64,000 bases of DNA. Origin: a virus. Below are positions 1,283-42,898 of this stretch, in pieces. The notes beneath the pieces were generated by a model that was given only the letters and a program-made list of their open reading frames with translations, was not told the origin of the DNA and made no database searches. Each line of letters begins with the position of its first letter. Position 1 is the stretch's first letter. Made by a program: the position numbers and the translations under genes. The stretch spans positions 1 to 64,000 of IMG/VR virus record IMGVR_UViG_3300023223_000599. One strand, written 5' to 3'.

Positions 1283-1311
1283 ATAATACCTATTATGTTG
1301 ACAAAAAGCAA
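1283..1311 (-). promoter_or_regulatory. sigma70-like promoter candidate upstream of terS
   Basis: Coding strand reads TTGCTT-(17 nt)-TATTAT, 28 nt upstream of the terS ATG. The -35 lies in TTGCTTTTTGTCAA, a variant of the 14-nt motif shared by other promoters here. Confidence 0.45.
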
Positions 1312-1345
1312 TCTCGCGCATGGAAAAACAATTGTTGAGGTTGTT

Positions 1346-1738
1346 TTACGGGGTAAATACAACCTTTTTATCAAGTACTTGATTGCAAGCCCAACACCTT
1401 CTTTCAATTATCTTCTTGGTTCTTTGGATTATTTTTTTATCCATTCCTTCTTTGAAATCGCGCAAACAATGCTCTTTGCTTTGAAAAATGTGATATCTGG
1501 TCCTTATGAATCTTTCTTGAATCCTTCTTGACGTATAACTTTTGCAATATCTCTTCAAAAAGTTTCCTAATGATGTCTGCAAAGCTCTTTTAAGAGGCTC
1601 TCTTGGATAAGTACACCTCATCACGTTGTAATATTCATTAAGTAAGCTTTCTGAAAGAACCACCATTTCAAAGTTTTCTGATGATATTTTATCAAGCCAC
1701 CACTTTTCATCACGTTTCAACAATTTCACATCGTCCAT
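1346..1738 (-). CDS. stand-alone paralogue of the primase-helicase C-terminal domain
   Basis: 130 aa with AAGGAG Shine-Dalgarno upstream. TSLGNFLKRYCKSYTSRRIQERFIRTRYHIF aligns with TSLGLFLRKICPGIQTRRVQENFTRTRFHYF at the C-terminus of the 23558..25939 product; WW(L/F)(D/N)K is also shared. Confidence 0.7.
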   Translation of the reverse strand: MDDVKLLKRDEKWWLDKISSENFEMVVLSESLLNEYYNVMRCTYPREPLKRALQTSLGNFLKRYCKSYTSRRIQERFIRTRYHIFQSKEHCLRDFKEGMDKKIIQRTKKIIERRCWACNQVLDKKVVFTP

Positions 1739-1851
1739 ATTTAACTCCTTTTGCCCATACTATCAGACCTTTTATTGTTTTTGTAGCATGAGATGTTGAT
1801 TTTTTTAAAATAAAACGATTTTTGGCAACGGTGCCTGACCTATTATTTATC

Positions 1852-2141
1852 AGGTTCGTCATTATTCCTCAAAACCATACCATGACTTCTCAAAACCCAA
1901 CGATCATTTTTGAGGTTCGTAGCTGTAAGCTGTTACTATTATTATATTTATATTAAATAATATATATATACCATACCGCCAACCTCAATAGATCAACGCT
2001 ACCGCAGGCCAATTGTAGCAGCGAATGCCCTCCAAAGTCGGCACGTTCGGATTTGACGTTTTTTTCGGCAGTAAGTCTAAGCTATAAAAGAAGTTATATG
2101 ATGGGGAACGTTAGAAAATCCTGTTGGGCAGAACCCAACGA
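1852..2141. repeat. noncoding iteron-like repeats plus pure A/T tract (candidate ori/pac region)
   Basis: No convincing ORF between 1739 and 2316. Direct repeats: AGGTTCGT (1852, 1913), CTCAAAACC (1868, 1889), AACCCAACGA (1894, 2132), CCATACC x2. There is an 8-bp inverted repeat CCTCAAAA/TTTTGAGG (1867/1908) and an uninterrupted 34-nt A/T run at 1937-1970. Confidence 0.45.
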
Positions 2142-2316
2142 ATGTTCGTCACTGGCAATTTTAGGGGGGTGAATGCGATTTATTGGGTGTTTTTAGAGCG
2201 TTCAAGCAATTAAGCAAGAACAATATCCAGAATGGATTTATACATGGGCATATGATACCAAAGCCCAATCTTGTTTCAAGCGGATTATCAGAATAGTTAA
2301 AGTAAAGATTCAAATA

Positions 2317-2961: not shown

Positions 2962-2962
2962 A

Positions 2963-3431: not shown

Positions 3432-3463
3432 ATAGTTCTCCATTTCTAAATTCTTATAACAAT

Positions 3464-3492
3464 ATTATATGTTAAGATTAACACAAACACAA
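3464..3492 (-). promoter_or_regulatory. sigma70-like promoter candidate
   Basis: Coding strand reads TTGTGT-(17 nt)-TATAAT in the 87-nt gap upstream of the gene starting at 3431. Confidence 0.5.
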
Positions 3493-4280: not shown

Positions 4281-6221
4281 TCAACAAGATTCGTCGTTAA
4301 CTACACCATCACTCTTACATTTGGATAGTTCGCCACTGACGTATTCGATCTCATTGGAAAGCCTAAGCAAATGATTAAAATCTTCAGCACCATTATCACC
4401 AATTCCAAAGGAATGTTTTAGAACAAGATCACTAATTACCTTGCCAAGGTCTTTAATCCTATGCTCAAGCCAAATGAACCTCGGCATCATGCCAACCGTG
4501 GGCTTATGAGGCCGATGGGCAAAATCTTCATCTCTGATTGTACAATCACCTTCTGATAAAACGGTGGCAATACGATCTTGACTTGGCCTTGTAACAATTC
4601 CACCCTTGGCCATCCCAAGAGGCACTTCAACAGCATCTTTAAAAGCTTTATCCATATGAAAGTCGCAAATCATGCCCATATTGTGGCCTCTTTGACCACA
4701 CTCTATAATGCAACAAGTCTTTTGATACCTATGATCAACACAATAAGATTCACCCGGCGCCCAAGTGATCTTTTCGCATGCTTGACAGGTCACTCTTTGG
4801 GGCTTGTTGTCAACAATAAACATCCGATCCGGTCCACCATTATCTGGCCCGATGCTAACCGGCTCTTTCATAAGCGCACTATCGATCCCTCTAGGATCTG
4901 CACCAGGAGATTCAACAGCATTATCAATAGGCAACAGTTTATCAGATTCAACAACAACAGTTTTCCCACAATAATCACAAAACTTCACATGGCAATCACC
5001 AGTGGTGTCTATTTCTCCAACGCCGCAATACTTACACATCATTTTATTATCAACGGGCTCTTCTTCAACATCAGCCCCGCCTATACGAACACCAATATTT
5101 GAAATCTCACCAGCCAATTCGACTAATTGAGATTTATCAATTCCAGCCGTTAAAATCGCCATCTTTTTACGTTGTTGTTCAACAAAATCTTCTGAATGAC
5201 GCTTGCAATAAACAAACTCAGAAGATATATGCTCAGTGCATTGATCCCACTGGCAAATGGCACCACTATCATTAAAGAAAGCCTGTATCGCTCCTTCAAC
5301 CTTAAATTCAGCCTCTTCACCAGTGTCAAACCCACCAACCTTTGCAATCTCAGCATTTATTTCTGGAACCGTGGGCAGAATAGATAAATCAATTGAACCA
5401 GTCTGATGCTTTGCACAAAAGATGCTGTGCCCATGGTTACCATTAACCATATAATCACACCCTAATTCAGCGCATTTTTTCATAACAACTTTTCTTTGCA
5501 TATTATCCCAGTGATCCTTGCAAAATTTCATCCCATCGGACGCATGATTTTCACAACCTTCAAAGCTGCATGTATTTTGATGTTTCTTACATTTATAATC
5601 GCGGTGGTCATTCATGTATTTAGTTTTTTTAACGACTTCATTGCAGTCAACTCTTAGACATTTTACAAGTTCATCATGCTTATAACAAAAATCAATTCCT
5701 TTATCAATCCGCTCACAACAACCATCTTGACTACATAAATTAGGTTCATCATTATCCACTTCATCAATATGCTGAACACAATAATCACCCATGAAAGCAT
5801 TGTATGAGCAACCGTCTTTAGAGCATTTGGAAGCGTTGCCTTTACAAACATGATTTTCATTCTCAACGACAACACCATCACAAAAAATACATTTTGACGC
5901 TTTTCCATTATGTTCATCGCAAAACCAAAGGCCATCACAAACAACCTTGTTGTGACAATTTGGAACTTCACAATCTTTCATGCCGTCATCTTTTTTAGAC
6001 TTACAAACATGATTATCAATACCATCTTGGTCCAATATGATCATTCCACAATCATCACACTGAGCGCATATATGCATGAACGTGGGCAAGAATGACTGAT
6101 TGCACTTTTCACAAGTCACATAATCCTTCTTGTCAACGTGATCAATGCACCGCGTGGGCTTTTCAAGACCTGAAACAACGTCATTGTTGCAGTTTTCAAT
6201 CTCGCACTTGCTTGCTTTCAT
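4281..6221 (-). CDS. Cys/His-rich protein with tandem Cys3His knuckles
   Basis: Start moved to ATG 6221 (TAATG overlap with the ASCH gene stop). There are nine copies of C-x4-C-x9-17-C-x2-H (e.g. CSKDGCSYNAFMGDYCVQH, CSFEGCENHASDGMKFCKDH) plus CxxC pairs. Confidence 0.75.
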   Translation of the reverse strand: MKASKCEIENCNNDVVSGLEKPTRCIDHVDKKDYVTCEKCNQSFLPTFMHICAQCDDCGMIILDQDGIDNHVCKSKKDDGMKDCEVPNCHNKVVCDGLWFCDEHNGKASKCIFCDGVVVENENHVCKGNASKCSKDGCSYNAFMGDYCVQHIDEVDNDEPNLCSQDGCCERIDKGIDFCYKHDELVKCLRVDCNEVVKKTKYMNDHRDYKCKKHQNTCSFEGCENHASDGMKFCKDHWDNMQRKVVMKKCAELGCDYMVNGNHGHSIFCAKHQTGSIDLSILPTVPEINAEIAKVGGFDTGEEAEFKVEGAIQAFFNDSGAICQWDQCTEHISSEFVYCKRHSEDFVEQQRKKMAILTAGIDKSQLVELAGEISNIGVRIGGADVEEEPVDNKMMCKYCGVGEIDTTGDCHVKFCDYCGKTVVVESDKLLPIDNAVESPGADPRGIDSALMKEPVSIGPDNGGPDRMFIVDNKPQRVTCQACEKITWAPGESYCVDHRYQKTCCIIECGQRGHNMGMICDFHMDKAFKDAVEVPLGMAKGGIVTRPSQDRIATVLSEGDCTIRDEDFAHRPHKPTVGMMPRFIWLEHRIKDLGKVISDLVLKHSFGIGDNGAEDFNHLLRLSNEIEYVSGELSKCKSDGVVNDESC

Positions 6222-6583
6222 TAAACCCAAGCTCCCAATCTAGCTTCGATGATCTCGGGCGGGATAGTGAAGAGGTTTAGAGCTCCTTTGATTGGGAAGG
6301 GTTCGATGGGCACAACGTCATCAAGAACCCAAGACCAAAGGTCATCACTCCATGGGCAACAAGCGGCTACTTGATGCTGTTTCTCCATCTTGACGCAATC
6401 AATGATGGTGACAATGGCAACGGCCTGACCAAATGGCAAGCCCTCCATGACTGGCTTTTTGGAAGCGCATATAAGTACTTGCCCTCTGTAATGTGTTCTT
6501 CTTGTGCGTGTCTCGATTGTCTTTTTCCCTGAAACAATAAGCCCTGCCCAAGGTTGTTTGACTGATAATCCTTTAATGATCAT
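6221..6583 (-). CDS. ASCH domain protein
   Basis: MIIKGLSVKQPWAGLIVSGKKTIETRT...YRGQVLICASKK matches the ASCH/PUA-like N-terminal signature as I remember it. Confidence 0.65.
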   Translation of the reverse strand: MIIKGLSVKQPWAGLIVSGKKTIETRTRRTHYRGQVLICASKKPVMEGLPFGQAVAIVTIIDCVKMEKQHQVAACCPWSDDLWSWVLDDVVPIEPFPIKGALNLFTIPPEIIEARLGAWV

Positions 6584-7493: not shown

Positions 7494-7567
7494 TGGAAGA
7501 GGTGGGACTTGAACCCACAACATCAACCGCGCCGGGCCAACCATTCTATCCTTGAATGTACTCTTCC
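7494..7567 (-). tRNA. tRNA-shaped element with non-canonical anticodon arm (tRNA, pseudo-tRNA or processing signal)
   Basis: 74 nt: GGAAGAG TA CATT CAAGGATAG AATG G TTGGCCCGGCGCGGTTG ATGTT GTGGG TTCAAGT CCCAC CTCTTCC A. It has a perfect 7-bp acceptor stem, a perfect T arm with a TTCAAGT loop, and a D arm with GG. The 17-nt anticodon segment only pairs through G-U wobbles or mismatches. No CCA is encoded. Confidence 0.5.
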
Positions 7568-7576: not shown

Positions 7577-7605
7577 ATCATAGGCGCCTTGTTGTCTTTT
7601 GTCTA
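7577..7605 (-). promoter_or_regulatory. sigma70-like promoter candidate driving the tRNA-like element
   Basis: Coding strand reads TAGACA-(17 nt)-TATGAT within the motif TAGACAAAAGACAAC. The -35 overlaps the stop of 7603..7818. The -10 ends 9 nt before the tRNA-like 5' end. Confidence 0.55.
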
Positions 7606-9718: not shown

Positions 9719-10357
9719 CTAGATGATGTCAGCCCACTCAATCGGCTCAAGATCTTTCTTGAGATACAGCGGATGCGCGGGCTGGCCATCCTTATTCATT
9801 TTCAAATAGTACATGTTCTTTTTGAGGCCGGTCTTTTTCTTGTATGCCAAGATCAACCTTCTGAACTTTTCAGCTCTACCCATGAATTCGCCATCATTGC
9901 CCCATGCGCAGATTGTCATCCTGGACAATCCAAAGGCCATTTCAAGGGTGGCATCGTTACGACTAAAGAATCCATCTGCTTCAAGTCTGTTTTCACCCAC
10001 GGGGTTATGTGAGCATTTCATATCTATGGGCTTTGTGGCTCTAAAAGAGAATAGATTGACCATGCAAAGCTGACCGTAGCCCCACGCCTTAGCAAACCCC
10101 ATGCAGCGGCGAATCGTTGGGTCGTCGTCTGTTTCATCGGCTGTTGATGGATTGAGACCCACAAAGACTACAAGGGGCTTTGTCTGATCCCATGCGCGGC
10201 CAAGCGTGTATCTGAACAATCCACACTCCGAGAATGTGGCTGTCTTGATCACCCCATCATCACCAGTCGCATTCGCATCCTTCGCACTGGCATCATCGCC
10301 ATCACCGCCGCTTTGAATACCTTTAACAAGCTCCAAACCTTTTAGTTTTTTAGTCAT
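9719..10357 (-). CDS. DUF1643-like protein
   Basis: FRYTLGRAWDQTKPLVVFVGLNPSTADETDDDPTIRRCMGFAKAWGYGQLCMVNLFSFRATKP matches the NPSTAD...D.T...NLF signature of DUF1643 as I recall it. Confidence 0.7.
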   Translation of the reverse strand: MTKKLKGLELVKGIQSGGDGDDASAKDANATGDDGVIKTATFSECGLFRYTLGRAWDQTKPLVVFVGLNPSTADETDDDPTIRRCMGFAKAWGYGQLCMVNLFSFRATKPIDMKCSHNPVGENRLEADGFFSRNDATLEMAFGLSRMTICAWGNDGEFMGRAEKFRRLILAYKKKTGLKKNMYYLKMNKDGQPAHPLYLKKDLEPIEWADII

Positions 10358-12762: not shown

Positions 12763-13222
12763 AATTAATCTTCTCCATCAATTCCCTAGATTCATTTATA
12801 ATTGAATCATAAATGTCTTCAAAATCGGTGCAGTGATATTCACCAACATCTTCTTCTTCAATCTCGTCAGCTGTTTTTTGTATACAAAGCATTTTGAGGA
12901 ATTGTTTCATCTTGTCGTTTTCAGAATTAACAATCTCAACAGCCATCAACATCTTTGTATTACTTTCTCTATAATGATTAATGGTATCTTCTGTTGGCTG
13001 GCACAATGCTATTGTTAATTTTAATTGGCTGTTTTCATCTATCAAAGATTCAATCCTCTTGGCAGCACGACCCAACACCAAATCAGCGTCTTTATTCGGC
13101 CTTGCGGGGATATGCATGTAGAACTCACTCAAACCATCTTTACCCAATGTCACGGCTTTTGCAAGCTCTCTGAGGCGGGTCACGATTACTTTATCGGTGG
13201 GCAATTCATTATCAGTTGGCAT
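12755..13222 (-). CDS. hypothetical acidic protein
   Basis: 155-aa ORF. Confidence 0.6.
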   Translation of the reverse strand: MPTDNELPTDKVIVTRLRELAKAVTLGKDGLSEFYMHIPARPNKDADLVLGRAAKRIESLIDENSQLKLTIALCQPTEDTINHYRESNTKMLMAVEIVNSENDKMKQFLKMLCIQKTADEIEEEDVGEYHCTDFEDIYDSIINESRELMEKINCE

Positions 13223-13979: not shown

Positions 13980-14008
13980 ATCATAAACAATTAGTTTACA
14001 AAAGACAA
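13980..14008 (-). promoter_or_regulatory. sigma70-like promoter candidate
   Basis: Coding strand reads TTGTCT-(17 nt)-TATGAT in GTTGTCTTTTGTAAA, then GCTTAA and a purine-rich leader. It begins right after the stop at 14012. Confidence 0.55.
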
Positions 14009-14011
14009 CAC

Positions 14012-16326: not shown

Positions 16327-16355
16327 ATCATATGACACTGACTTACAAAAGACAA
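16327..16355 (-). promoter_or_regulatory. sigma70-like promoter candidate
   Basis: Coding strand reads TTGTCT-(17 nt)-TATGAT in GTTGTCTTTTGTAAG, followed by GCTTAATAGAAAAGGAG. Confidence 0.6.
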
Positions 16356-16374
16356 CAGTTAATATTGATAAAAT

Positions 16375-17062: not shown

Positions 17063-17271
17063 TCTTCACCTTCAAAATCCTTGCATGTTGAGCCCTTATT
17101 TAGGAATCCAACAATTTTGTCTTTTCCAACATTCATTTTATCGCTGACATCCCAATGACCCATTTCACATTTAAACTCGGCGCTCTCTCCGGGGGTGTAT
17201 TCACTATAAGCTGGACAACCACTATCAAAGACGCAAAACTTACAATCCAGGCATTTGTATTTTTCGTTCAT
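17059..17271 (-). CDS. Cys-rich mini-protein
   Basis: 70 aa with CLDCKFC...C...C...C. Confidence 0.55.
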   Translation of the reverse strand: MNEKYKCLDCKFCVFDSGCPAYSEYTPGESAEFKCEMGHWDVSDKMNVGKDKIVGFLNKGSTCKDFEGEE

Positions 17272-20661: not shown

Positions 20662-20690
20662 ATCTTAAATAAGCTGTTGTCTTTTGTCAA
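20662..20690 (-). promoter_or_regulatory. sigma70-like promoter candidate
   Basis: Coding strand reads TTGACA-(17 nt)-TAAGAT in TTGACAAAAGACAAC (the motif in opposite orientation), then GCTTAATAGAAAAGGAG. The -35 overlaps the exonuclease stop. Confidence 0.6.
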
Positions 20691-23495: not shown

Positions 23496-23524
23496 ATAAT
23501 AACCAACTGGTTTACAAAAGACAA
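23496..23524 (-). promoter_or_regulatory. sigma70-like promoter candidate
   Basis: Coding strand reads TTGTCT-(17 nt)-TATTAT in GTTGTCTTTTGTAAA, in the gap after the primase-helicase stop. Confidence 0.55.
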
Positions 23525-23557
23525 CAACAAAATTGATATTTTTTAATATTTCTTTCA

Positions 23558-25939
23558 TTACAATTCTTGCTCAACACTTTCATCAAAATCAGCATCAATC
23601 GTTTCCCATTCAATTGGCCCAAATGCTTCAGCAAAGAAGGCGCGAGACATTTTAAGATCTGGGAAATAATGGAACCTTGTTCTTGTGAAGTTTTCTTGAA
23701 CACGCCGTGTTTGAATGCCTGGGCATATCTTTCTAAGAAACAAGCCCAAAGAAGTTTCGCATGCTCTCCTGGCCACGTTGAGGCGCTTAGTGTGATTTAT
23801 GTAATCATCAAGAATCATGTTTGATTCGCATCGTTCAAGCCATTGGTCGCTACTCTTGTCTTTTTCAAAGATTTGACCCTTTTGAAGCTTATTAAACCAC
23901 CACTCTTGCTCAACCGTCATTGATAGCATCTTTTGCTCCATCAATGCCTTTGTTTGTGGAACCTTGCGAACCTGAAATTCTGAGATGTCATAATTTAACA
24001 AATAGTGAAGCAATGCCTCTTGGCCGCCACTGTCCATCTGCTTCCTTATAGCGGCGAAATATGAAGAGTTTTGCTGTTGAGTGTCTTTGACATCAATCAC
24101 ACAGTAACGACGCTCATCGCCCCCTGCAGGCACCACGTGATCCTCGTTGCTGGCCATGATCAAGCTTATATAGTTCGGGCAAGCTTCAGCATCAATACCC
24201 TTGGCCTCAATGGTGAGCGTGGGCTCTGTAATCAACGCTTTCAGCACAGAAGCATTCTTTTTATCGTTGGCATAGAAAGCTTCATCAGCAAAAACACACA
24301 CAACATCCCTTAAATGACTGTTAAAGTTGCCAACAAGGTGTGAACTGTTCACAATTTGCATTCCGTGACGCCCAAACAGCTTCAAATACTCGTTAGCGAA
24401 CACGCCTTTTCCAACGCCTCGCTTGCCTTTTAAAACAAGGGCCACTTCACCGGGCCTATCTGGGAACTGAATGCCACGGGCAAGCCATGAAATCACATAA
24501 ATATAGATCTCTTCATCCCCACCACAAATATTTTTCTTAATGTGATCAAGATACAAAGAGCAATCACCCGCAATTGCCTGACAGCCAAAACCCTTCCAAA
24601 GATTGTAATGGCCGGGGGTATCAGCACCCGGTGAAAACACCAATGAATTGTATTGGCGGCGTAATTCGTGATTAATCCACCATTTGCCCACGGGCATCAT
24701 GATCGGCATCATCTTTGCATCCACACCAACTTGAATCTTCTTATTGCAATAACCTTGCGCAAAATCTTGAAAGCTCATTTTGGTGAACCGTGTCCGTTTC
24801 ATCGCTTGGTCATAAACTTCTTCAATTACACGGCATTTTCCGCCCATGTTCCTGATCACTGCAAATTGTTTGTTGAGTTTCTCAAGCCACGGGTCAATGA
24901 CGTGTTCCTTCGCCCTGGCAATCTGCCTTGTGGCGTACTTGTGGGCATTGGCACCCTTATCAATAACGCTTTCAGAAATTCCAAACTCTGGGTCAGTGAT
25001 AATTGAATACATTTTATCATCAGTGAATCCAGCCCTTGCCATTCCACATAAGGCATCAAAAAGCCACGCACTTCTTGAATCATCATCTTCTTTTCTTTCA
25101 TCAGGAAGACGGCCTTGAACAATAATAATCTTCGTTCGGTCACGCAAGTCAAGGTCATTGACATCATCAACACGCTCAATGTTTCCTGATATCTCGACAC
25201 TTACTGATGAAGGGGTTGAGATGCTTGTTTTGCCAACCTGTACTTCAGGCGCTTTTTGAAAAGCGTCTTCATCATAAGTCATACCCATATTCATCTTGTG
25301 AACTTCGGCTAATACAATCTTGCGGCCTTTTTTCCGCTTTTTTGCATCGGGAACATTCAATGTTCCAGGAAGACGGCACAACCTATCAATATTGTGGCAG
25401 TGGTCAGCCTGAAACACTGTTTCAAGCTGTTGGTTGTAGCGTTTGGCATCTTCAGCTAGTTCAAGCTTGCCATCAATTGGAATTGGATTATTGAGCTCCC
25501 AAAAGCCTTGATAACCACCACCTGAATAAATGATGATGGTGGGCTCTGGAATTCCTTCAGGCAGTTTGTCAGTCAAAAGCCCAAGACAACGCTGCTTCTC
25601 AGATTCTAAAAACGATTCTTTGAATTCTGTCGTGCTGTCTTCAGGCGGTGATTCTGGATCAATATCAATGTGAAAATAATTAACACTCTTAATATCGGTC
25701 CTGGCCGCCTTCTTGGTGACCTTGTGCTTGACTGGATTTATTTGAAAATAGAGGTTCCTTTGGCCATTATAAAGCTCAAGCCATTTTCGCATCTCCCCAA
25801 TTGTTGACTGGTAAAAAGTTCTAGTTTCGATTGCCTTTTTATCAGGCTGAATACACGTCAAACACCATGGGCCCTCTGCATAAATTGCTTCGAGGAATGA
25901 AAGTGATTGATCTATTGTGTCATTGTCGACATCATTCAC
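23558..25939 (-). CDS. primase-helicase: AEP (prim-pol/RepB'-like) primase fused to D5/P4-type SF3 helicase
   Basis: 793 aa. N-terminal motifs are NLYFQINPV, YFHIDIDPE (DxD), IIIYSGGGYQGFWEL and DRLCRLPGTLN. The central YNLWKGFG is VirE/D5-N-like. Walker A is LKGKRGVGKGVF and Walker B is VCVFADEA. Confidence 0.8.
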   Translation of the reverse strand: MNDVDNDTIDQSLSFLEAIYAEGPWCLTCIQPDKKAIETRTFYQSTIGEMRKWLELYNGQRNLYFQINPVKHKVTKKAARTDIKSVNYFHIDIDPESPPEDSTTEFKESFLESEKQRCLGLLTDKLPEGIPEPTIIIYSGGGYQGFWELNNPIPIDGKLELAEDAKRYNQQLETVFQADHCHNIDRLCRLPGTLNVPDAKKRKKGRKIVLAEVHKMNMGMTYDEDAFQKAPEVQVGKTSISTPSSVSVEISGNIERVDDVNDLDLRDRTKIIIVQGRLPDERKEDDDSRSAWLFDALCGMARAGFTDDKMYSIITDPEFGISESVIDKGANAHKYATRQIARAKEHVIDPWLEKLNKQFAVIRNMGGKCRVIEEVYDQAMKRTRFTKMSFQDFAQGYCNKKIQVGVDAKMMPIMMPVGKWWINHELRRQYNSLVFSPGADTPGHYNLWKGFGCQAIAGDCSLYLDHIKKNICGGDEEIYIYVISWLARGIQFPDRPGEVALVLKGKRGVGKGVFANEYLKLFGRHGMQIVNSSHLVGNFNSHLRDVVCVFADEAFYANDKKNASVLKALITEPTLTIEAKGIDAEACPNYISLIMASNEDHVVPAGGDERRYCVIDVKDTQQQNSSYFAAIRKQMDSGGQEALLHYLLNYDISEFQVRKVPQTKALMEQKMLSMTVEQEWWFNKLQKGQIFEKDKSSDQWLERCESNMILDDYINHTKRLNVARRACETSLGLFLRKICPGIQTRRVQENFTRTRFHYFPDLKMSRAFFAEAFGPIEWETIDADFDESVEQEL

Positions 25940-26288
25940 GACTTGCCCAATATTCAGTCAAGATTTCACATGGTTCTTTTGCAAGTTCCATCTTATTGAC
26001 CCAATAGCGGCAAACACCTAATTCGTTGGCGATTTCCTCTTGCTCTAAACATGCCCTTCTTCTCAAAATTGCGCATTTTTCAAAATCTTCTAATTTGTCA
26101 GAATAAACTTTTGGCATCCAAACGGGGAGTGAAACAATCTCTTTTGTGCCAAGTTCCCAAGATGAATAAGTGACTCTTGATACATGACACTTTCTAGACA
26201 TCTTTGCTTGCGTTAATCCTTTACGCCTTCTATAGATAAAAAGCTGTTCGGCTGCAGACAGTCGGCCAAGTTTTAATTTTACTCTCAT
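25932..26288 (-). CDS. HTH transcriptional regulator (XRE-like, two HTH-like segments)
   Basis: 118 aa with RRRKGLTQAKMSRKCHVSRVTYSSWELG and LEQEEIANELGVCRYWVNKME. Confidence 0.55.
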   Translation of the reverse strand: MRVKLKLGRLSAAEQLFIYRRRKGLTQAKMSRKCHVSRVTYSSWELGTKEIVSLPVWMPKVYSDKLEDFEKCAILRRRACLEQEEIANELGVCRYWVNKMELAKEPCEILTEYWASRE

Positions 26289-27263: not shown

Positions 27264-27707
27264 TCAATTGTTACTGTCATTCTTAGATCCTCTAGTCTCA
27301 TAGTTCTCGTTTTCTAAGAAGCGAATTAATTCATCCCACTTCATACCCTTTGACCAATATTTAACGGTCAAATCAATGAGTTGTTCCCTTGTACACTTTC
27401 CAATGTTTTGAGCGGCGACATCTGCATAGAATAGAAGGTATTCTAAACGACATTGCAACAAAAGCCAACAATTACCTTTGCGAAATCCTCTTTTTCTGTG
27501 CCATAATCTTTGCTCTTTTGAATAGTGTTCAATGGTAATATTTGTATTAGATCTTACAGGCCAAGACCTTAACCATTTAAGTTCAATCCAACCTTCAATG
27601 TAATTAACATCCGGTGTTCCTGGGCATGCAGGATTTTCAACAGACACGGCATCCAATTTCTTAAGCTTAGATGTTAGTTTTCCTCTTAAATCTGATTCAC
27701 TCATCAT
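27264..27707 (-). CDS. VRR-NUC family nuclease
   Basis: ENPACPGTPDVNYIEGWIELKW fits the G.PD...(E).K PD-(D/E)XK core of VRR-NUC. 147 aa. Confidence 0.55.
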   Translation of the reverse strand: MMSESDLRGKLTSKLKKLDAVSVENPACPGTPDVNYIEGWIELKWLRSWPVRSNTNITIEHYSKEQRLWHRKRGFRKGNCWLLLQCRLEYLLFYADVAAQNIGKCTREQLIDLTVKYWSKGMKWDELIRFLENENYETRGSKNDSNN

Positions 27708-29887: not shown

Positions 29888-29916
29888 ATTATATTCTGCG
29901 TGTTGTCTTTTGTCTA
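29888..29916 (-). promoter_or_regulatory. sigma70-like promoter candidate
   Basis: Coding strand reads TAGACA-(17 nt)-TATAAT in TAGACAAAAGACAAC. It overlaps the 3' end of the upstream gene. Confidence 0.55.
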
Positions 29917-32208: not shown

Positions 32209-32237
32209 ATTATGCAAAACTGTCATACAAAAGACAA
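32209..32237 (-). promoter_or_regulatory. sigma70-like promoter candidate
   Basis: Coding strand reads TTGTCT-(17 nt)-CATAAT in CTTGTCTTTTGTATG. Confidence 0.5.
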
Positions 32238-32262
32238 GCTTTAACTTTGTTAAATTAGATTT

Positions 32263-32697
32263 TTAAGTTGCGGTTGTACATGCCTGTTTGACATCTTGCC
32301 AAAGTGTCGGGCTCTTAAGAATAAACTGTGCGCCCATAGATTCAACACGTTGCATTTCATGTTCACTAATTTTTGCGGCTGATACAAATATTAATTTATC
32401 CGCACGATCTTTCAAATTCATTTTTTCAGCAAGAGAAATACCCGTGATATCAGGCATACGGACATCAATGATCAATCTTGACTTTCCGTTTTCACGCAAG
32501 ATGACATTTAAATATTTTGTATCGGTTAATGTTTTAATGTTGACATCGGGGCCCGCTGATCGTTCTAGAATTTTGAGCCAATCCTTGTCATCGTCAATAA
32601 ACAAATATAATTCTGCCGGCTTACAACCCAAACTCTCCATGTCGGTTTGGATATCATTCATTAGATCACGAACTTCTTGCCTCATTTGCTTAATCAA
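32263..32697 (-). CDS. stand-alone response-regulator receiver (CheY-like REC) domain protein
   Basis: All REC landmarks are present: LYLFIDDD (acidic pair), RLIIDVRMPDITG (phospho-acceptor Asp followed by MP...G), KLIFVSA (Ser/Thr) and AQFILKSP (Lys). There is no output domain. TTG start; an alternative ATG lies at 32685. Confidence 0.7.
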   Translation of the reverse strand: MIKQMRQEVRDLMNDIQTDMESLGCKPAELYLFIDDDKDWLKILERSAGPDVNIKTLTDTKYLNVILRENGKSRLIIDVRMPDITGISLAEKMNLKDRADKLIFVSAAKISEHEMQRVESMGAQFILKSPTLWQDVKQACTTAT

Positions 32698-33235: not shown

Positions 33236-33691
33236 CTAGCCTGTGTCTTTTTTCTGTTCATCTTTCTGTACAGTTTCTTCTTTTCCCCGGTTAAGGAATT
33301 CTTGACACATTTCCCTTGAACGTTGTAGGCCATTGTGAACACTGTCCAAATTGTCATATGAAAGATTTAATATATTTAGAATATCATTTGGAGTAAAATC
33401 AAATTCACCAAATAGTTTTTGAAGATTCCCAATTTCAACAAGAATCTTTGCAGAGTGAACGCGCAAATCTTCAATCACATTCAACGAATCCTTGCAAAGA
33501 TTATTCATTTCATGAATTGGTTTGACCTTCAAATTATATGGTTTTCCATAAGAAAAAATTGATGAGAACATATCACCAAAATTATCCGATCCTTCACCTT
33601 CACGATGTAGAATTATTTCATCATCATCATGCTTGCCTTCGCACATCTTGAGAATGTTTTTCACGGTTAATGACTTTCCCTCACTCATCAT
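33236..33691 (-). CDS. hypothetical protein
   Basis: The track ORF is trimmed to ATG 33691 (MMSEGKSL...), overlapping the upstream stop. Confidence 0.55.
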   Translation of the reverse strand: MMSEGKSLTVKNILKMCEGKHDDDEIILHREGEGSDNFGDMFSSIFSYGKPYNLKVKPIHEMNNLCKDSLNVIEDLRVHSAKILVEIGNLQKLFGEFDFTPNDILNILNLSYDNLDSVHNGLQRSREMCQEFLNRGKEETVQKDEQKKDTG

Positions 33692-35180
33692 CAACACCGT
33701 TGAACTCATTGGTTTTCCAATAGGCCCAGATATGAGGAACGTCACCATTTTCAATTGCATCAATAACTGTTGCGGCCGCGTCTTCAGTAATCCCAAGAAT
33801 ATCATTCATTCCAGCAATCGCCGCCTTGCGCATGTCTGAAATCTTCAATGACAACTCGTTAGCCTTGGCTGTTTCATCTTCTTCTTTTTGTTTGGCGGCG
33901 GCTTCTTTTTCAATTGCGCCTTTGATTTTGGCGTCGAGAAGGGCAATGAGCTTTTTCTTTTCATTGTCGGCCCTGTCTTGAAAGTCTTCATCAACACTTG
34001 CTGAACAACCCTCAAAAATAATCTTTGCTTTTTTAAGAGCTTCAGAATCAAGATTGTCAACGGTTGACAATGATTGTCTCATCTCAAGAATGGCAGCTTC
34101 ATTCTTTTCTTTGCGACGATATTCTTCACGCTCTTTGGCTTGGTTCTTTTTGCGTTCGATTTCTTCGCTTTCTTCTTTCAGGCGTTTTGCTTCGGCTGCT
34201 TGTTTTTTTCGTGTTTCCTCTTGTTCAGCCTGTTGCTCTTCAACACGTTGTCTTCGGTTTTGATCTTCTTTGATATCATCAATACGCTGATTTAAGACGA
34301 TTTCAGCGGCGGCAATCATGTCAAAGACTTCTTGCTCAAATTCTTGAAAGTCAAGATCATTATATATTTTCTTTGCACTGTCTAAGCAAACACCAACAGC
34401 AACTTCATTGATTGCAATCTTGCCCTTGTTCAAAAACTCTTTAACTCTATCAATATTTCTTTTATGCATATCAAATCTGTTTGCCTCTTTTTCCTTCTTG
34501 GCATCTTCTTCAGCCTGTTTGGCTTTCTCAGCCTCGAACTTTTTTCGGTCTTCTTCAAGGCGCTTTGTTTCTTCTTCATTGGCAAGTGTCTGCTTATAAA
34601 GGTTTTCCATATTTTCAATGGTTCCTTGACGCTTGATCACTGCTTGATTTTTGAATTCTTGAAAAAACTCTTCATCAATAACGATTTCTTCAAGCGTTAC
34701 AATTATAGATTTTATTTGAACTGCTGATTTTCCTTGAGCCTCAATAAAGAATTGGCCGATATCTTCAATTTCATCAGTGATCTTTTTGACGCGGGTTGCT
34801 TCAGCAAGTTTCTTCTTCAGCTTTTCTTCTTCTTTGACATTGTCAAAGGTCTTCTTGACTTCTTTCAAGGGATCTTCAAGGCTGCGAATCTGGCCCGTTC
34901 TTTTATTGGCTTCATTGTTTACCGCATCAATATAATCACGGTGTAGTTTTGTCTTTTCTTTTTTGTGATTTTCAAGACCCGTTCTTAATCCGACTAATTT
35001 GCGAATGCCTAAACGGGCAAACTCATATTCTTCTTTATTTGACAAATCCAATGCTTCAGGATTTTTGAATTCTTCTGCAAGTTCAACCATGAATTTATCG
35101 GTCACATTGTTGATGATTATCTCGTTTGGGTCAATTACTTCGGGCAAACCTGCTTGTTCTGCCTGCTTTGTCTCGCTCAC
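33681..35180 (-). CDS. Lys/Glu-rich coiled-coil protein
   Basis: 499 aa. GTG start preceded by AAGAAAAGGAGAACTAA. The long KE-rich low-complexity core generates several shadow ORFs. Confidence 0.7.
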   Translation of the reverse strand: MSETKQAEQAGLPEVIDPNEIIINNVTDKFMVELAEEFKNPEALDLSNKEEYEFARLGIRKLVGLRTGLENHKKEKTKLHRDYIDAVNNEANKRTGQIRSLEDPLKEVKKTFDNVKEEEKLKKKLAEATRVKKITDEIEDIGQFFIEAQGKSAVQIKSIIVTLEEIVIDEEFFQEFKNQAVIKRQGTIENMENLYKQTLANEEETKRLEEDRKKFEAEKAKQAEEDAKKEKEANRFDMHKRNIDRVKEFLNKGKIAINEVAVGVCLDSAKKIYNDLDFQEFEQEVFDMIAAAEIVLNQRIDDIKEDQNRRQRVEEQQAEQEETRKKQAAEAKRLKEESEEIERKKNQAKEREEYRRKEKNEAAILEMRQSLSTVDNLDSEALKKAKIIFEGCSASVDEDFQDRADNEKKKLIALLDAKIKGAIEKEAAAKQKEEDETAKANELSLKISDMRKAAIAGMNDILGITEDAAATVIDAIENGDVPHIWAYWKTNEFNGVDDE

Positions 35181-35727: not shown

Positions 35728-35756
35728 ATTATGCAACACCACTTAACAAAAGACAA
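35728..35756 (-). promoter_or_regulatory. sigma70-like promoter candidate
   Basis: Coding strand reads TTGTCT-(17 nt)-CATAAT in GTTGTCTTTTGTTAA, 14 nt after the helicase stop. Confidence 0.55.
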
Positions 35757-35769
35757 CAACAAACTTCAA

Positions 35770-39558: not shown

Positions 39559-39586
39559 ATTATCTTCAAGTGTTGTCTTATGTCAA
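39559..39586 (-). promoter_or_regulatory. sigma70-like promoter candidate
   Basis: Coding strand reads TTGACA-(16 nt)-GATAAT in TTGACATAAGACAAC. The -35 overlaps the TGA of the upstream gene. Confidence 0.5.
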
Positions 39587-39966
39587 GCCATCCTATTGAT
39601 TTCATTAAAAAGATCATTCACTTCAAGAGGAATATATTTTTGATCTTTTCCATGCCATTGTAGGGATTTTAGATTGCCTTCATTGTATTCTGCAGCGATT
39701 GCACCGGCCATTACAATAAAAAGAGGATTTCCGATAAATAAAATGTAGTCATTTGCCGAAAAGTATTTGAGCTTCTCATGTAACTCCCGCTTAATTGGCT
39801 TGCTGTCAAAGGGCTTTGCTGTTGGGCTCAACAAGAAAACGATTTCGCCGTATTCTTTAGCTGATGACAAATCGAAACGAGGAACAAATTTTCCCTGTTC
39901 TTTGTCGTATTTTGTTTGCTCTTGTACCACATAAACCGTCATTTTATATCCATTCTTTAAGCTCAT
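39583..39966 (-). CDS. hypothetical protein
   Basis: 127-aa ORF. An alternative ATG at 39942 lies 1 nt after the helicase stop. Confidence 0.55.
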   Translation of the reverse strand: MSLKNGYKMTVYVVQEQTKYDKEQGKFVPRFDLSSAKEYGEIVFLLSPTAKPFDSKPIKRELHEKLKYFSANDYILFIGNPLFIVMAGAIAAEYNEGNLKSLQWHGKDQKYIPLEVNDLFNEINRMA

Positions 39967-42322
39967 CGCCTCTTATCTGTGCGGCTACATCATACTTGTT
40001 TCTTAATGCATCCGCAATCTTTTCGTCACCTGTTCCAGGACAAACAACGTCATTATATGTCACGGCGTTGTGCTGTCCTATGCGGTGATTTCTGTCTTCA
40101 CTTTGAAGTCTCATCTCAAGACTGTATGAGTTTGAGTGATAGATTGATTCCGTAGCATTGATAACCGTGATGCCCGTGGCACCCTTCTGAGGATTGGCCA
40201 CAAAGTGTTGTTTATCACCACGCCTGAACGCCTCTAATGAAATAGCTGCATCTTCACTAGTCATTTTCCCATCGTATCGTGCGCCCCTATCGCCCAACCG
40301 CTCCATCAGCACATCAATCTCGGGGCTGAATCGTGCCCATATAATCGCTTGGTGCGTGGCATCTTCCAGGTGGGCAATTGTTGCATCAATCCGTGGGTTG
40401 TTCTTGCCAATAAAGACTAAAGGTTCGTCTGGTCCTGTGGAAGCATACCCACAAGTGATTTGTTGCAGCCTCATCATCCTGACAATGGGCAAGGCTGCAT
40501 CAACCATCATGCCTTCACCATCTTCCTCACCCGTTTCAATAATTGTCATGTATTCTTCTTTAAGTTGATTGTAGGCCCTCCACTGCTCCGGGTTCATATC
40601 AAAGTAAATCTTTGAATACAATTTATCAGGAATGCCCAACCCCGCACTGTCTTTCGTGACACGTGATGAGATGGTTTTAATAATGTCGCGCAATTTATCG
40701 AGGTTCTTATATGACAACAATTTATCATAGCCCGGATCATAGCCATACTCATCAATGACTTGTTGCCTCTTCTGCCAAACGCCAAAGAACGACTTATATG
40801 CCGCAAAACTTCCCAAGTGGTGACGTTTCCAAAACTCTGGATCAAGGAACTTCATTGGCGTGTATAAATCAAACGGACCTTCAGCGCCCAAGGTTCCAGA
40901 TAACACACGCTTATAAGTTGCGTAACGCCCAGAAGCAACAATTGATTTTGTGCGCTTGGCGCCTGGGCTCTTAATTTTTTGTGCTTCATCAAGAACATAA
41001 TAACATTTACGCTTTGTCAAAAAGTCCCATGCAAGCTTCTTGCCTGCCTTCGTCATAAAGCCTTCATAAGTCATGGCTAAAATAGATAGCCCTTTATAAT
41101 TCAGCACATCAGCGCAAGCTTGTTTATGCCACTTTGTCTTGGCTCGTTTCGATTCATAAAAATGAACCTCCGCTTTTTCCAATAATTCAGGCGGCAAATG
41201 TGCCGGTAATTCATCAGTGATCCAATTGCGATGGACGCCATTAGGGGCCACAACAAAAAGAGAATCAACTTCACCTTTGTCATATAGGTATTGAAACTCA
41301 TCAATATTTAATTTTGATTTGCCGGTGTTCCCCGTAATAAAAACACGTCCACTTCTTCTTAAAACAAGAAATGTTGTTGGCACTTTAAAACAATATTTAA
41401 AACCATCTGAAGAATATTCTGGATAAATATCTTCAATACACTTAAGTTTGGGAAGTTTTGTGCCGTTATTAGAGATAACCCAACCCTTTTCTTGTCGCCT
41501 CTTGGAGTACGAAAAAAAACCTTGGGAACAAGCAATGAATTGTATGAAGTCAGCATTTTCTTCTGTGTCTGTATAGAGTTGATTATCTTGTGTGAGCGTC
41601 CATCTAAAGGCCTCATCAACAATTATATCGCGCTCTTTGTTGGTGATCTTATTCCACCATGTATGATCAAAGCCATCGTAGGCCTTTTTCACTTGATATC
41701 TTTTACCCGCTGTTCGTGTCGTGCTGTAGGTGCTTTTTGTTCCTGTCAGCTTTAAAAATCGAATCAATCGGTCTTGGCGATCTTCCGGCCATGAGGCCCT
41801 AAATCTCACATCAGTTCCATTTGTAGAGGTTCTACGGCCTTGAATGATAAGAATAGTCATCAATCTAAGCTCTGGTTCGGTCATGCCCAAGCCTTCGCCT
41901 GTCATATCGTATTTGAATAATCGTGGCATATAAACATCTTTGCCATCATCACAAATATCTGTAACTGATTTTATAAACATCAATGGATAATTTTGATATT
42001 TTGACGCTGAAAACAACACCCGATGATTCGGTGTCAACATTTGATCAATTTCTTTATTATAGAAATGAACCATCTTTTCACACGGCTCTTTAATGTATTC
42101 AACAGGCTCAACAAAATTAATTTTTCCTGTTCCACTATCATACTGAGCCACCGGCTCACCACGATATCTATCTATACGGCGCCAACCAGAAGGGCTTAAA
42201 TATTCAGTTTCGGCATCAACGCATCCTTGTTCCCATAAATGGGCATATGCTTTAATGTCTTTTGAATTGTCAAACTCTTCTTTTTGATATGGGAATGGTT
42301 TTGTGTGGAATTTGAATGTCAA
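39944..42322 (-). CDS. SNF2-family (SF2) helicase precursor containing an intein
   Basis: 792 aa. TTG start preceded by TAGAAAAGGAGAACTAGAGA. The extein motifs are LWEQG|TGKSK (split P-loop), LDEAQKIK (motif II) and LQSEDRNHRIGQ (motif VI). Confidence 0.8.
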   Translation of the reverse strand: MTFKFHTKPFPYQKEEFDNSKDIKAYAHLWEQGCVDAETEYLSPSGWRRIDRYRGEPVAQYDSGTGKINFVEPVEYIKEPCEKMVHFYNKEIDQMLTPNHRVLFSASKYQNYPLMFIKSVTDICDDGKDVYMPRLFKYDMTGEGLGMTEPELRLMTILIIQGRRTSTNGTDVRFRASWPEDRQDRLIRFLKLTGTKSTYSTTRTAGKRYQVKKAYDGFDHTWWNKITNKERDIIVDEAFRWTLTQDNQLYTDTEENADFIQFIACSQGFFSYSKRRQEKGWVISNNGTKLPKLKCIEDIYPEYSSDGFKYCFKVPTTFLVLRRSGRVFITGNTGKSKLNIDEFQYLYDKGEVDSLFVVAPNGVHRNWITDELPAHLPPELLEKAEVHFYESKRAKTKWHKQACADVLNYKGLSILAMTYEGFMTKAGKKLAWDFLTKRKCYYVLDEAQKIKSPGAKRTKSIVASGRYATYKRVLSGTLGAEGPFDLYTPMKFLDPEFWKRHHLGSFAAYKSFFGVWQKRQQVIDEYGYDPGYDKLLSYKNLDKLRDIIKTISSRVTKDSAGLGIPDKLYSKIYFDMNPEQWRAYNQLKEEYMTIIETGEEDGEGMMVDAALPIVRMMRLQQITCGYASTGPDEPLVFIGKNNPRIDATIAHLEDATHQAIIWARFSPEIDVLMERLGDRGARYDGKMTSEDAAISLEAFRRGDKQHFVANPQKGATGITVINATESIYHSNSYSLEMRLQSEDRNHRIGQHNAVTYNDVVCPGTGDEKIADALRNKYDVAAQIRGDELKEWI
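41327..42223 (-). mobile_element. intein (299 aa, Cys34 to Asn332 of the helicase precursor)
   Basis: It begins with CVDAETEYLSPSGW (block A, Cys1) and contains MLTPNHRVLF (block B, T..H). It ends KYCFKVPTTFLVLRRSGRVFITGN followed by Thr+1. Codons were checked: 42221-42223 gca gives TGC, and 41327-41329 gtt gives AAC. Removal restores GTGKS. Confidence 0.7.
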
Positions 42323-42351
42323 TCTCTAGTTCTCCTTTTCTATGCCATTTT

Positions 42352-42394
42352 CATGAGCAAGTAAAATATTAATCGATTCACTTGCTCATGTCAA
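42352..42394 (-). promoter_or_regulatory. consensus-like promoter bracketed by an 11-bp inverted repeat (candidate operator)
   Basis: Coding strand reads TTGACA (42389-42394)-(17 nt)-TAATAT (42366-42371). The arms CATGAGCAAGT and ACTTGCTCATG (42380-42390 and 42352-42362) are separated by 17 nt. One arm covers the -35 and spacer, the other the start-site region. Confidence 0.6.
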
Positions 42395-42409
42395 TGGTTG
42401 TCTTATGTC

Positions 42410-42898
42410 TTAAGTCTTCGGTCTTTCTTCATCAGGGGATAATATGCTGAAAATAGAACCTGTTCTTTTTAGAAATCCGCCAAAATATTGTTTGAATTTC
42501 TTTCTGAATTCAAATATATGGTTTCCTTGCCAAACTATGAATAATGTTATCAGTAAAACGAGAACGCCCATTTTGCCTTCCGTTCGATACGTTTCCATGA
42601 CAAGCGCTAGGAATCCACCACTACTCACGCCTTTTTTCATCTCTTCTTCAGACACTTTGCCGTCTTTGTTTGTGTCAAAAATCTTGACAACAACAGCCGT
42701 TTTCTTCTCGGCTGCAGCAAATACTTCATCAGCTTTTTCATAAACCTTTGTGGCTTTGGCATGATGTTGCTTGCCTTCAGCGGCAAACACTTGAGCTTGA
42801 TTCAATAGAGCTGTGGCTTTTTCCAATTGGCTACAAGAGCTAAAGAAACCCCCAAGGCTTATCAGAATTATCATTTTTATCATCAGTGCGTTTCGCAT
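42410..42898 (-). CDS. secreted/membrane protein with EF-hand Ca-binding loop and C-terminal TM
   Basis: 162 aa. It has a signal-like N-terminus with a possible lipobox (FFSSC), a canonical EF-hand loop DTNKDGKVSEEE, and the TM segment GVLVLLITLFIVW. It overlaps the upstream gene by up to 59 nt, and the start is uncertain. Confidence 0.6.
   Translation of the reverse strand: MRNALMIKMIILISLGGFFSSCSQLEKATALLNQAQVFAAEGKQHHAKATKVYEKADEVFAAAEKKTAVVVKIFDTNKDGKVSEEEMKKGVSSGGFLALVMETYRTEGKMGVLVLLITLFIVWQGNHIFEFRKKFKQYFGGFLKRTGSIFSILSPDEERPKT

Follow-up and report, generated by a model that had tools for sequence, protein, structure and literature searches.

A 13-nucleotide element in two orientations and registers marks a family of putative promoters in a virus distantly related to phage YuA

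Phage promoters that depend on the host RNA polymerase and carry a conserved box at -35 are a known kind. Here we describe a family of putative promoters of this kind, built on a repeated 13-nucleotide (nt) element, in a stretch of viral DNA comprising positions 1-64,000 (hereafter the window) of the 70,144-nt contig IMGVR_UViG_3300023223_000599 of IMG/VR. Among the systems that invite comparison, the middle promoters of T4 carry a MotA box at -30 and are used through sigma appropriation by MotA and AsiA. The lambda CII and P22 C1 promoters bear TTGC-N6-TTGC direct repeats straddling -35; CII is a homotetramer with one helix-turn-helix (HTH) per chain, and the few CII promoters in a genome serve lysogeny control. 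The marbox is a 20-bp site at or upstream of -35, from which the AraC-type proteins MarA, SoxS and Rob activate in both orientations. Cro/cI operators, such as ACAA-N6-TTGT of phage 434, are palindromes bound by homodimers. To our knowledge, none of the YuA-like phages (Mesyanzhinovviridae, with many uncultured relatives) brings its own RNA polymerase.

The closest known system is that of Pseudomonas phage YuA, whose box is a probable diverged homologue of the element in the window. The YuA genome record (NC_010116) marks five repeats of the form CTTTACTTCTTCGG-N7-CACTATA as 'putative sigma70 promoter requiring phage-encoded cofactor', and nine YuA transcription starts mapped by ONT-cappable-seq share the motif (Putzeys et al. 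2024, PMC10914365). Four YuA motif promoters, reported earlier, showed no promoter activity in vivo without the phage, from which the authors concluded that additional, probably phage-encoded factors are needed (PMC10914365). As in the window, the box of YuA and M6 is repeated in intergenic DNA on the gene strand of the non-structural (early/DNA-metabolism) region. In YuA, a pyrimidine-rich box of 13-14 nt at -35 is followed by a -10-like box and then by the same (C/T)AGAAAAGGAG leader that we find in the window, and its tandem-HTH orthologue, gp25, is encoded next to the primase gene, again as in the window. Both boxes can be read as two 4-nt direct repeats 7 bp apart: CGAA-GAA-GTAA in YuA and ACAA-AAG-ACAA in the window, with GCAA-AAG-GCAA in phage Ab18. 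However, the YuA box CTTTACTTCTTCGG falls outside the consensus of the window's element TGTTGTCTTTTGT, lacking both of its conserved G positions; the closest variant to YuA among the relatives described below, TTGTCTTCTGC of locus L009, shares 8/11 positions with it. Unlike the window, YuA also repeats the box in its -10 region (CTATACTTCTTC), and in YuA and M6 we saw no inverted copy inside a gene-strand promoter of the sort that defines one of the two promoter classes in the window.

The invariant block in the window is the 13-mer TGTTGTCTTTTGT, which occurs in seven exact copies (plus strand at 7590, 20675 and 29901; minus strand at 14010, 16357, 23526 and 35758) where about 0.002 would be expected by chance. 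Two near copies complete the set of nine strong ones (39571 on the plus strand, with one mismatch, and 32239 on the minus strand, with two). Allowing at most one mismatch, the pattern TTGTCTTTTGTNA found nine matches, against 1.23 +/- 1.25 in shuffled sequences, and none of 100 shuffles reached nine. The bases flanking the 13-mer show no conservation, and those of its positions that fall in the promoter spacer are conserved as strongly as the hexamer. Although the gene strand outside open reading frames (ORFs) of at least 50 amino acids (aa) amounts to just 2,223 nt (3.5%), it holds 7/9 strong copies, the other two overlapping the 3' end of the upstream ORF. An earlier reading made from the sequence alone (the sequence-only reading) had listed ten sites, at coordinates that proved exact and correspond to the low-coordinate ends of the -35 hexamers. 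Nine of these are the strong copies, and the tenth, at 1306, is degenerate, with three mismatches (GATTGCTTTTTGT). It had also pointed to an extra copy near 42398 ahead of a separate consensus promoter, and this we recovered as an inverted copy with two mismatches at 42396-42408. The element itself had been drawn as a 14-mer found in two orientations at -35: the pattern TTG.C....G..A is indeed common to both forms, yet the conserved unit is the asymmetric 13-mer. On its purine-rich strand (ACAA-AAG-ACAA-CA), RCAA is repeated directly at a distance of 7 bp. A palindromic operator (TTGNC-N4-GNCAA) could be ruled out, since only 8/14 positions are self-complementary, the right half of class A (defined below) reads GTAAA and not GACAA, and the non-symmetric positions are equally conserved and invert as a block in class B.

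The copies fall into two arrangements, which we describe on the gene (minus) strand, counting the -10 hexamer as -12 to -7 and naming each site by the first base of its -35. In class A (five sites: 14008, 16355, 23524, 32237 and 35756), the 13-mer is followed after 12 nt by a -10 hexamer TATGAT, TATTAT or CATAAT. Bases 3-8 of the element, TTGTCT, themselves form the -35, and the element spans -37 to -25, with its centre near -31. In class B (four sites: 7605, 20690, 29916 and 39586), the reverse complement ACAAAAGACAACA is followed after 7 nt (6 nt at 39586) by the -10 hexamers TATGAT, TAAGAT, TATAAT and GATAAT, respectively. Here the leading ACA of the element, together with an added T(T/A)G, yields a -35 of TTGACA or TAGACA, and the element spans -32 to -20, with its centre near -26, inside the spacer. 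Going from class A to class B is thus an inversion plus a 5-bp shift of register, and because the inversion is tied to this shift and to the added T(T/A)G, we treat the two as distinct promoter classes. This departs from the sequence-only reading, which had put both forms at the same position and had proposed orientation independence: the spans differ, and the inversion comes with a new, near-consensus -35. The fixed geometry that it had noticed is borne out, the -35/-10 spacer being 17 nt at eight sites and 16 nt at 39586, and the -10 hexamers over the nine sites being TATGAT (three), CATAAT (two), TATTAT, TAAGAT, TATAAT and GATAAT. So is the overlap with upstream stop codons, which in class B places the stop of the preceding gene inside the -35 or -10 at 4/4 sites (TGA in TTGACA at 20690 and 39586, TAG of TAGACA at 7605, and TAA in TATAAT at 29916). 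We also considered class B copies as the -35 of antisense promoters, which is ruled out by the plus strand at 7590, 20675, 29901 and 39571, where no usable -10 lies at the class A distance.

All nine sites look like sigma-70 promoters, with 9/12 hexamer positions matching in class A, 10-11/12 in class B, and spacers of 16-17 nt. Over the window as a whole, a generic sigma-70 scan did not rise above chance; it is therefore the 13-mer, and not the hexamers, that singles these sites out. Start codons preceded by a ribosome-binding site lie 21-26 nt past the -10, except at 7605, which faces a tRNA-like gene. By this geometry, a transcript starting a few bases past the -10 would begin nearly at the leader (T)AGAAAAGGAGAACTA. 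The sequence-only reading had listed a GCTTAA box and this leader as frequent parts of the shared promoter layout, but neither belongs to the element: the leader occurs 16 times, on the gene strand only (for example at 42341, 39552, 35720, 35196, 20654, 16319 and 7488), and many copies have no promoter. It is an extended ribosome-binding site, independent of the 13-mer, and its core (C/T)AGAAAAGGAG is kept across relatives ranging from 36 to 66% GC, YuA, Ab18 and Simon among them. The leader also resembles the purine-rich strand of the element (ACAAAAGACAACA).

The window appears to derive from a novel siphovirus, distantly related to the Pseudomonas phages YuA, M6 and Ab18. Megablast of the window against the phage collection gave no DNA-level match, and neither a peptide-pattern scan of viral contigs nor an exact-pattern scan of metagenome contigs recovered close relatives. 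Among 5.8 billion proteins, the closest homologue of the primase is 55% identical. This DUF5906 primase is 42-52% identical to homologues of the YuA/M6/Ab18 group (42% in the YuA/M6 comparison), and the tail tube is 53% identical to a protein of a YuA-group siphovirus; a lambda J-like tail protein, a Dda-like helicase and a PhoH-helicase fusion are also encoded. All credible genes among the window ORFs lie on the minus strand. Structural genes occupy about 43-64 kb, and the promoter family is confined to the non-structural region of 1-43 kb, which is rich in small ORFs. The exact-pattern scan of viral contigs gave six single hits to the 13-mer; we ruled out these contigs as relatives, as their count is close to the chance expectation and they share no proteins with the window.

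To follow the element beyond the window, we collected primase loci (10 kb to either side of the primase gene; 22-kb loci for L007 and L009) from 80 viral contigs, several metagenomic contigs and some cultured phages. When high-GC loci were searched whole for k-mers de novo, codon bias dominated the result, and an intergenic-only version worked. Many relatives with primases about 45-55% identical, at 36-66% GC and with unrelated flanks, carry the core TGTTGYCTTYTGY on the gene strand a short way ahead of genes, and so do the cultured phages Ab18 and Simon (variants in Table 1). The Ab18 genome (NC_026594) has such sites near 8273, 23889 and 37497. Over 39 sites, resemblance to TATAAT peaks solely at 12 nt past the 13-mer, with a mean of 2.9/6 and 15 sites reaching at least four matches; all other offsets have means of 0.9-2.2/6 and 0-4 such sites. 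A -10 likeness at a fixed 12 nt across the clade reflects selection on promoter geometry and not recent copying. The element is the form taken in the window by a promoter signal common to a large clade of YuA/Ab18-like phages. A literature search found no paper describing the TTGYCTTYTGY version or its inverted form; new are this widespread core with its fixed 12-nt geometry and the inverted, register-shifted class inside consensus promoters.

This conservation bears on whether any phage factor is needed at all. The sites could be plain host sigma-70 promoters, in which the 13-mer reflects a preference of the polymerase or the copying of a cassette within the genome. Their hexamers and spacing suit sigma-70, the whole cassette is repeated together with its leader, and a few unrelated viral contigs carry the 13-mer in a promoter-like context. 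We nevertheless consider this explanation improbable. The 13-mer is kept at 36-66% GC while flanks, leaders and -10 sequences differ, which excludes recent copying as the cause, and its spacer positions are as conserved as the hexamer. Moreover, the window's own consensus promoter at 42394 has no element inside it, the YuA version is inactive without the phage, and the hits in unrelated contigs are the single, chance-level ones described above. We regard it as likely that the promoters carry a site for a trans-acting factor, and, with somewhat less assurance, that they form a family of about ten host sigma-70-type promoters in which this site belongs to a phage factor. The proposal of the sequence-only reading, a site for a phage regulator or sigma appropriator over the -35, gains indirect support from the clade-wide conservation of the 13-mer, the cofactor-requiring promoters of YuA and the co-occurring tandem-HTH gene described next, and loses its argument from orientation independence.

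A concrete candidate for the long-missing cofactor, likewise new, is the 118-aa product of the gene directly upstream of the primase gene, a position that the gene keeps in nearly all relatives. The protein is a single chain with two HTH modules of XRE (Cro/cI-like) type. It matches HTH_31 and HTH_3 of Pfam and, weakly, Sigma70_r4, as well as the PHROG 'CII-like regulator' (weakly; E = 0.001), and its N- and C-terminal halves are homologous to each other (hhalign on a 23-sequence alignment, 98.8%, E = 6e-17). An AlphaFold2 model built on a 46-sequence alignment (pLDDT 94.6, pTM 0.84; the single-sequence model, at pLDDT 55, was unusable) shows two three-helix modules and a C-terminal helix. Foldseek found no counterpart of the whole chain in the PDB, and the single modules superpose on the XRE domains of P22 c2, SinR, DdrO and HipB. 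A single chain with two modules would fit an asymmetric site made of two direct repeats. In the 51 loci with the HTH gene, we counted 38 copies of the 9-mer core in 59 kb of intergenic DNA, against 26 copies in 914 kb of ORF DNA. In the seven loci without the gene (Pam3, RHph_I65, L067, L078, L082, L088 and L089), the core is absent from 18 kb of intergenic DNA. This co-occurrence is suggestive. The HTH-negative loci use other motifs, such as TTATCCCCGG past consensus promoters; in Pseudanabaena phage Pam3 (L095) and Rhizobium phage RHph_I65 (L094), (G)TTATCCCCGG(T/G) stands directly past CTTGACTT...TATATTGTAG promoters and is presumably the site of another regulator. When the primase loci L007-L009 were compared with the window ORFs (tblastn, E < 1e-5), the only matches were the primase, the HTH protein and a 147-aa protein (27264-27707), and a factor encoded near the primase and shared with L007 and L009 must therefore be among these three. 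The identity of the 147-aa protein to its relatives seemed higher where loci bear the motif; we set it aside as a member of PHROG 2165 ('DNA helicase') in which no DNA-binding signature was seen. Our identification of the factor with the tandem-HTH protein is a tentative one, with the odds somewhat against it.

Compared with the systems introduced above, the arrangement proposed for class A resembles the T4 middle promoters in having a phage box near -30, a good -10, and a phage protein working with host sigma-70. The MotA box, (a/t)(a/t)(a/t)TGCTTtA, is unrelated in sequence to the element and occurs in a single orientation, and the candidate reader is an XRE-type tandem HTH, unlike MotA and AsiA. 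No homologue of either was found among the roughly 45 window proteins scanned against Pfam and PHROGs, a set that leaves many small ORFs outside. Like the CII sites, the element consists of short TTGC-type direct repeats over a poor -35 (relatives have TTGCC-TT-TTGC), and GTTGCGTTTTGT of L083 presumably resembles the lambda pRE sequence; the repeat period of 10 bp at CII sites, however, differs from that of 7 bp shared by the window and every relative. The proposed model shares with MarA, SoxS and Rob a two-HTH monomer, an asymmetric site, and an orientation tied to the distance from the core promoter. It is only the logic that is shared, those proteins being of AraC type while the candidate is XRE-type (HTH_31/HTH_3, with modules like those of P22 c2, SinR and HipB). 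With Cro/cI operators the element has in common 4-bp half-sites of ACAA type, XRE-type modules, and an overlap with the -35 and spacer, but it is an asymmetric direct repeat, for which the candidate reader has both modules on one chain.

The site is most likely bound by a factor that the phage encodes and that acts together with the host RNA polymerase, with transcription expected to start a few bases before the conserved ribosome-binding leader. If the 118-aa protein is that factor, each of its HTH modules would read one RCAA repeat. Class A would be the ancestral arrangement, in which the element itself supplies the weak -35 TTGTCT. By analogy with YuA, class A would be activated by the factor, much like T4 MotA boxes or lambda CII sites over a poor -35; we infer activation because the class A hexamers of relatives are weak (TTGCCT with AAGAAT or GAGAAT) and the YuA version is silent without the phage. 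The class B hexamers, with 10-11/12 matches to consensus, could therefore be used by the host enzyme unaided. There the same factor, on an inverted site in the spacer of a near-consensus promoter, would most likely repress or damp, since a protein bound in the spacer is expected to hinder the polymerase. This assignment of signs, with class A activated and class B repressed, is doubtful, and we put it forward as a working idea. In the window, class B promoter 29916 stands upstream of the operon that holds the HTH gene, and a site of class A geometry inside ORF 27264-27707 (27458-27470) stands upstream of the operon with the HTH and primase genes, just ahead of the HTH gene. A circuit can be imagined in which the factor shuts off its own early class B promoter at 29916 and maintains itself from the class-A-like site at 27470.

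In its boldest form, the model would have one protein with two HTH modules use the same 13-bp site to switch promoters on when forward (-31), where it stands in for a weak -35, and off when inverted (-26) inside consensus promoters, so that orientation encodes the early-to-middle switch. This is speculative, and we hold it for a little less probable than the signs taken by themselves; the same grade applies to its corollary, that the forward mode is common to the widespread YuA/Ab18-like clade. Were the dual-mode reading true, the 'phage cofactor' sought since 2008 would gain an identity. The question of the YuA-type cofactor in any case becomes testable, as there is now a concrete protein-DNA pair with representatives in cultured phages (Ab18 ORF21 and YuA gp25). 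As a natural experiment, the window further allows one to ask how the sign of regulation is set by the way a factor site is oriented and placed in register, and the motif should be useful for annotating the promoters, and with them the transcription units, of many metagenomic phage genomes from a large group.

Several observations pull the other way. The link between HTH gene and motif comes from just seven HTH-negative loci and is confounded by phylogeny, and the recognition helices show no clear co-variation with the motif variants. The place of the HTH gene beside the primase gene would equally suit a role in replication, and a repeat spacing of 7 bp is unusual for two HTH modules. With the two conserved G positions missing from the YuA motif, homology with YuA is probable and not proven. 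The host enzyme might be able to use class A as found in the window (TTGTCT, 17 nt, TATGAT) without help. Finally, relatives have inverted copies without promoter geometry (L016:1966 and L009:2788) or flanking class A copies (L014 and L033), and the element therefore has uses that the model leaves unexplained.

The foremost alternative is that the element is purely a repressor operator, read by the tandem-HTH protein or by another, which lies over ordinary host promoters for shut-off or an immunity-like function. Orientation would then be irrelevant to steric occlusion, and the two registers would reflect the -35 mimics TTGTCT and (TTG)ACA. The element does overlap the -35 and spacer in both classes, both classes in the window phage have a good -10 and a usable -35, XRE-type HTH proteins are often repressors, and the orthologues YuA gp25 and Ab18 ORF21 are both annotated 'putative repressor'. 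The YuA motif promoters, however, are silent without the phage and active in infection, the opposite of what is expected of a repressed host promoter, and the weak class A hexamers of relatives suggest dependence on an activator. We judge this explanation unlikely, and its account of orientation and register equally so. It ranks first in likelihood among the rivals, followed by promoters without a factor, a role in RNA, and a DNA signal unrelated to transcription.

The inverted copies in relatives are relevant both to the origin of class B and to the possible role in RNA. On the gene strand of relatives, the inverted core is the rarer form, with 12 intergenic hits against 38 for the forward one. 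Class B promoter geometry was seen among them only at L007:1392 (ACGGCA-17-TATGAG); in L016 and L009, the copy at the orthologous site stops some 25 nt short of the ATG, too close for a -10 and a start to fit in between. No class B promoter was found in the 40-50 kb examined of Ab18, YuA and M6. As the geometry is thus nearly confined to the window phage, class B is essentially an innovation of this lineage, which re-used the same site, inverted, inside consensus promoters. L014, L027 and L033 have inverted copies within 6-40 nt of a class A copy, placed ahead of it or in the stretch that separates the -10 from the ribosome-binding site. Such pairs occur in L014 at 6117-6146, 10189-10240 and 12830-12880, in L083 at 2717-2790, and in L033 at 17131-17165. 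In some relatives, the upstream inverted copy gives a hairpin-like GAAAAAGACAA-N6-TTGTCTTTTTC; in others, the copy past the -10 leaves the -10 bracketed by an inverted repeat. Taken more broadly, the element behaves like a protein-binding site usable in several arrangements.

The same proximity of inverted copies to class A copies in L014, L033 and L027 would also suit an RNA-level role, in which the U-rich class A copy pairs with the leader or with an inverted copy in read-through transcripts, sequestering the ribosome-binding site or forming a terminator or processing hairpin. In the minimum-energy folds of 16355, 23524 and 35756, the element does pair with the Shine-Dalgarno leader, but the energies there are undistinctive (z = -1.05 to +0.02), and 32237 is the one class A site out of five to reach z = -2.9. 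Pairing with the leader, moreover, is impossible for class B copies, and the fixed -10 distance throughout the clade would go unexplained, which together make this role very improbable.

We attach as little probability to the element acting at the DNA level in something other than transcription, for instance as a nick site, a site of replication or primase loading, or the target or boundary of a modification, with an intergenic location merely for reasons of room. Its T residues (9/13) are all on one strand, the candidate binding protein is encoded beside the primase, relatives have genes for thymidine hypermodification, and some Pseudomonas phages bear sequence-specific nicks (PMC4482731). 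Such a signal would leave unexplained the fixed register with the -10 in both classes and across the clade, and the YuA version maps to transcript starts. Furthermore, comparing the window (1-64000) with L007, L009, L093 and L095 for hypermodification genes, we noted that a DNA polymerase A gene, a thymidylate-synthase homologue, an hmU DNA kinase gene and other thymidine-hypermodification genes lie just upstream of the HTH-primase pair in relatives; in the tblastn search described above, the thymidylate-synthase, hmU-kinase and DNA polymerase A genes of L007-L009 had no counterpart in the window.

Table 1. Positions of the element copies and candidate factor gene in the window, and variants of the motif in relatives
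Feature	Position (strand)	Sequence	-35	-10	Downstream start or context
Class A	13998..14010 (-)	TGTTGTCTTTTGT	TTGTCT 14008-14003	TATGAT 13985-13980	ORF start 13958
Class A	16345..16357 (-)		16355-16350	TATGAT 16332-16327	start codon 16302
Class A, just past primase stop	23514..23526 (-)		23524-23519	TATTAT 23501-23496	start codon 23471
Class A, 2 mismatches	32227..32239 (-)	GCTTGTCTTTTGT	32237-32232	CATAAT 32214-32209	start codon 32184
Class A	35746..35758 (-)		35756-35751	CATAAT 35733-35728	start codon 35704
Class B	7590..7602 (+)	ACAAAAGACAACA (gene strand)	TAGACA 7605-7600	TATGAT 7582-7577	tRNA-like gene 7494-7567
Class B	20675..20687 (+)		TTGACA 20690-20685, with TGA of ORF 20687-21370	TAAGAT 20667-20662	start 20635
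Class B	29901..29913 (+)		TAGACA 29916-29911	TATAAT 29893-29888	start codon 29865
Class B, 1 mismatch, 16-nt spacer	39571..39583 (+)		TTGACA 39586-39581, with TGA of ORF 39583-39966	GATAAT 39564-39559	start codon 39536
Possible class A	27458..27470 (-)	TGTTGGCTTTTGT		TAGAAT 27445-27440, after 12 nt	inside ORF 27264-27707
Degenerate, class-A-like, 3 mismatches	1301..1313 (-)	GATTGCTTTTTGT	TTGCTT 1311-1306	TATTAT 1288-1283	start 1254
Three tandem heptads, last two forming the 2-mismatch inverted copy	42396..42418 (-)	AGACTTA AGACATA AGACAAC			
Candidate trans-acting factor, 118 aa, single-chain tandem HTH, XRE (Cro/cI-like) type	25932..26288 (-)				directly upstream of primase
Motif in L007, L016		TGTTGCCTTTTGC			
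Motif in L009		TGTTGTCTTCTGC			
Motif in L014		TGTTGTCTTTTTC			
Motif in L083		TGTTGCGTTYTGT			
Motif in L013		TGTTGTCTTCCTC			
Motif in Ab18		TGCTTGCCTTTTGC		(G/C)AGAAT, after N12	
Motif in Simon		CTTGCCTTTTTGY			
Motif in L054, L062, L085		GATAARTAGAACTTGTC...			

Some neighbouring features deserve mention. The tRNA-like gene under class B promoter 7605 (7494-7567, minus strand) scores 35.1 bits against the Rfam tRNA model (gathering threshold 29) and is not called by ARAGORN. Its acceptor, D and T arms are normal, and its anticodon arm has a 7-bp stem and a 6-nt loop (CGGCGC). The gene may encode a non-canonical tRNA or a decoy. The ORF at 32263-32697 (minus strand), whose stop lies 24 nt upstream of class A promoter 32237, encodes a 144-aa protein with a Response_reg receiver domain (Pfam, E = 9e-9) and without an output domain. 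The two largest non-structural ORFs, 4281-6230 (649 aa) and 33681-35180 (499 aa), have no Pfam hit. Matches in the window to sigma-54 promoters like those of the YuA late genes were not above chance.

A single nucleotide separates the heptads at 42396-42418 from the -35 of TTGACA-17-TAATAT (42394-42366; -35 at 42394-42389 and -10 at 42371-42366), a consensus promoter that lacks the element and is upstream of the helicase gene. This promoter is bracketed by an inverted repeat (42345-42397) that is unique in the window, with 21-nt arms 86% complementary and 11 nt apart and the core ATGAGCAAGT/ACTTGCTCAT; it looks like the operator of a different, dimeric regulator at a probable early promoter. 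Directly upstream of the heptads, a 162-aa ORF (42410-42898, minus strand) matches EF-hands weakly, at E = 5e-5, short of the Pfam cut-off. At the other end of the non-structural region, a promoter-like TTGTGT-17-TATAAT (3464-3492, minus strand) precedes the leader copy at 3447. Its -35 region consists of a direct repeat with a 6-bp period, TTGTGTTTGTGT, and the site may be a degenerate cousin of the element.

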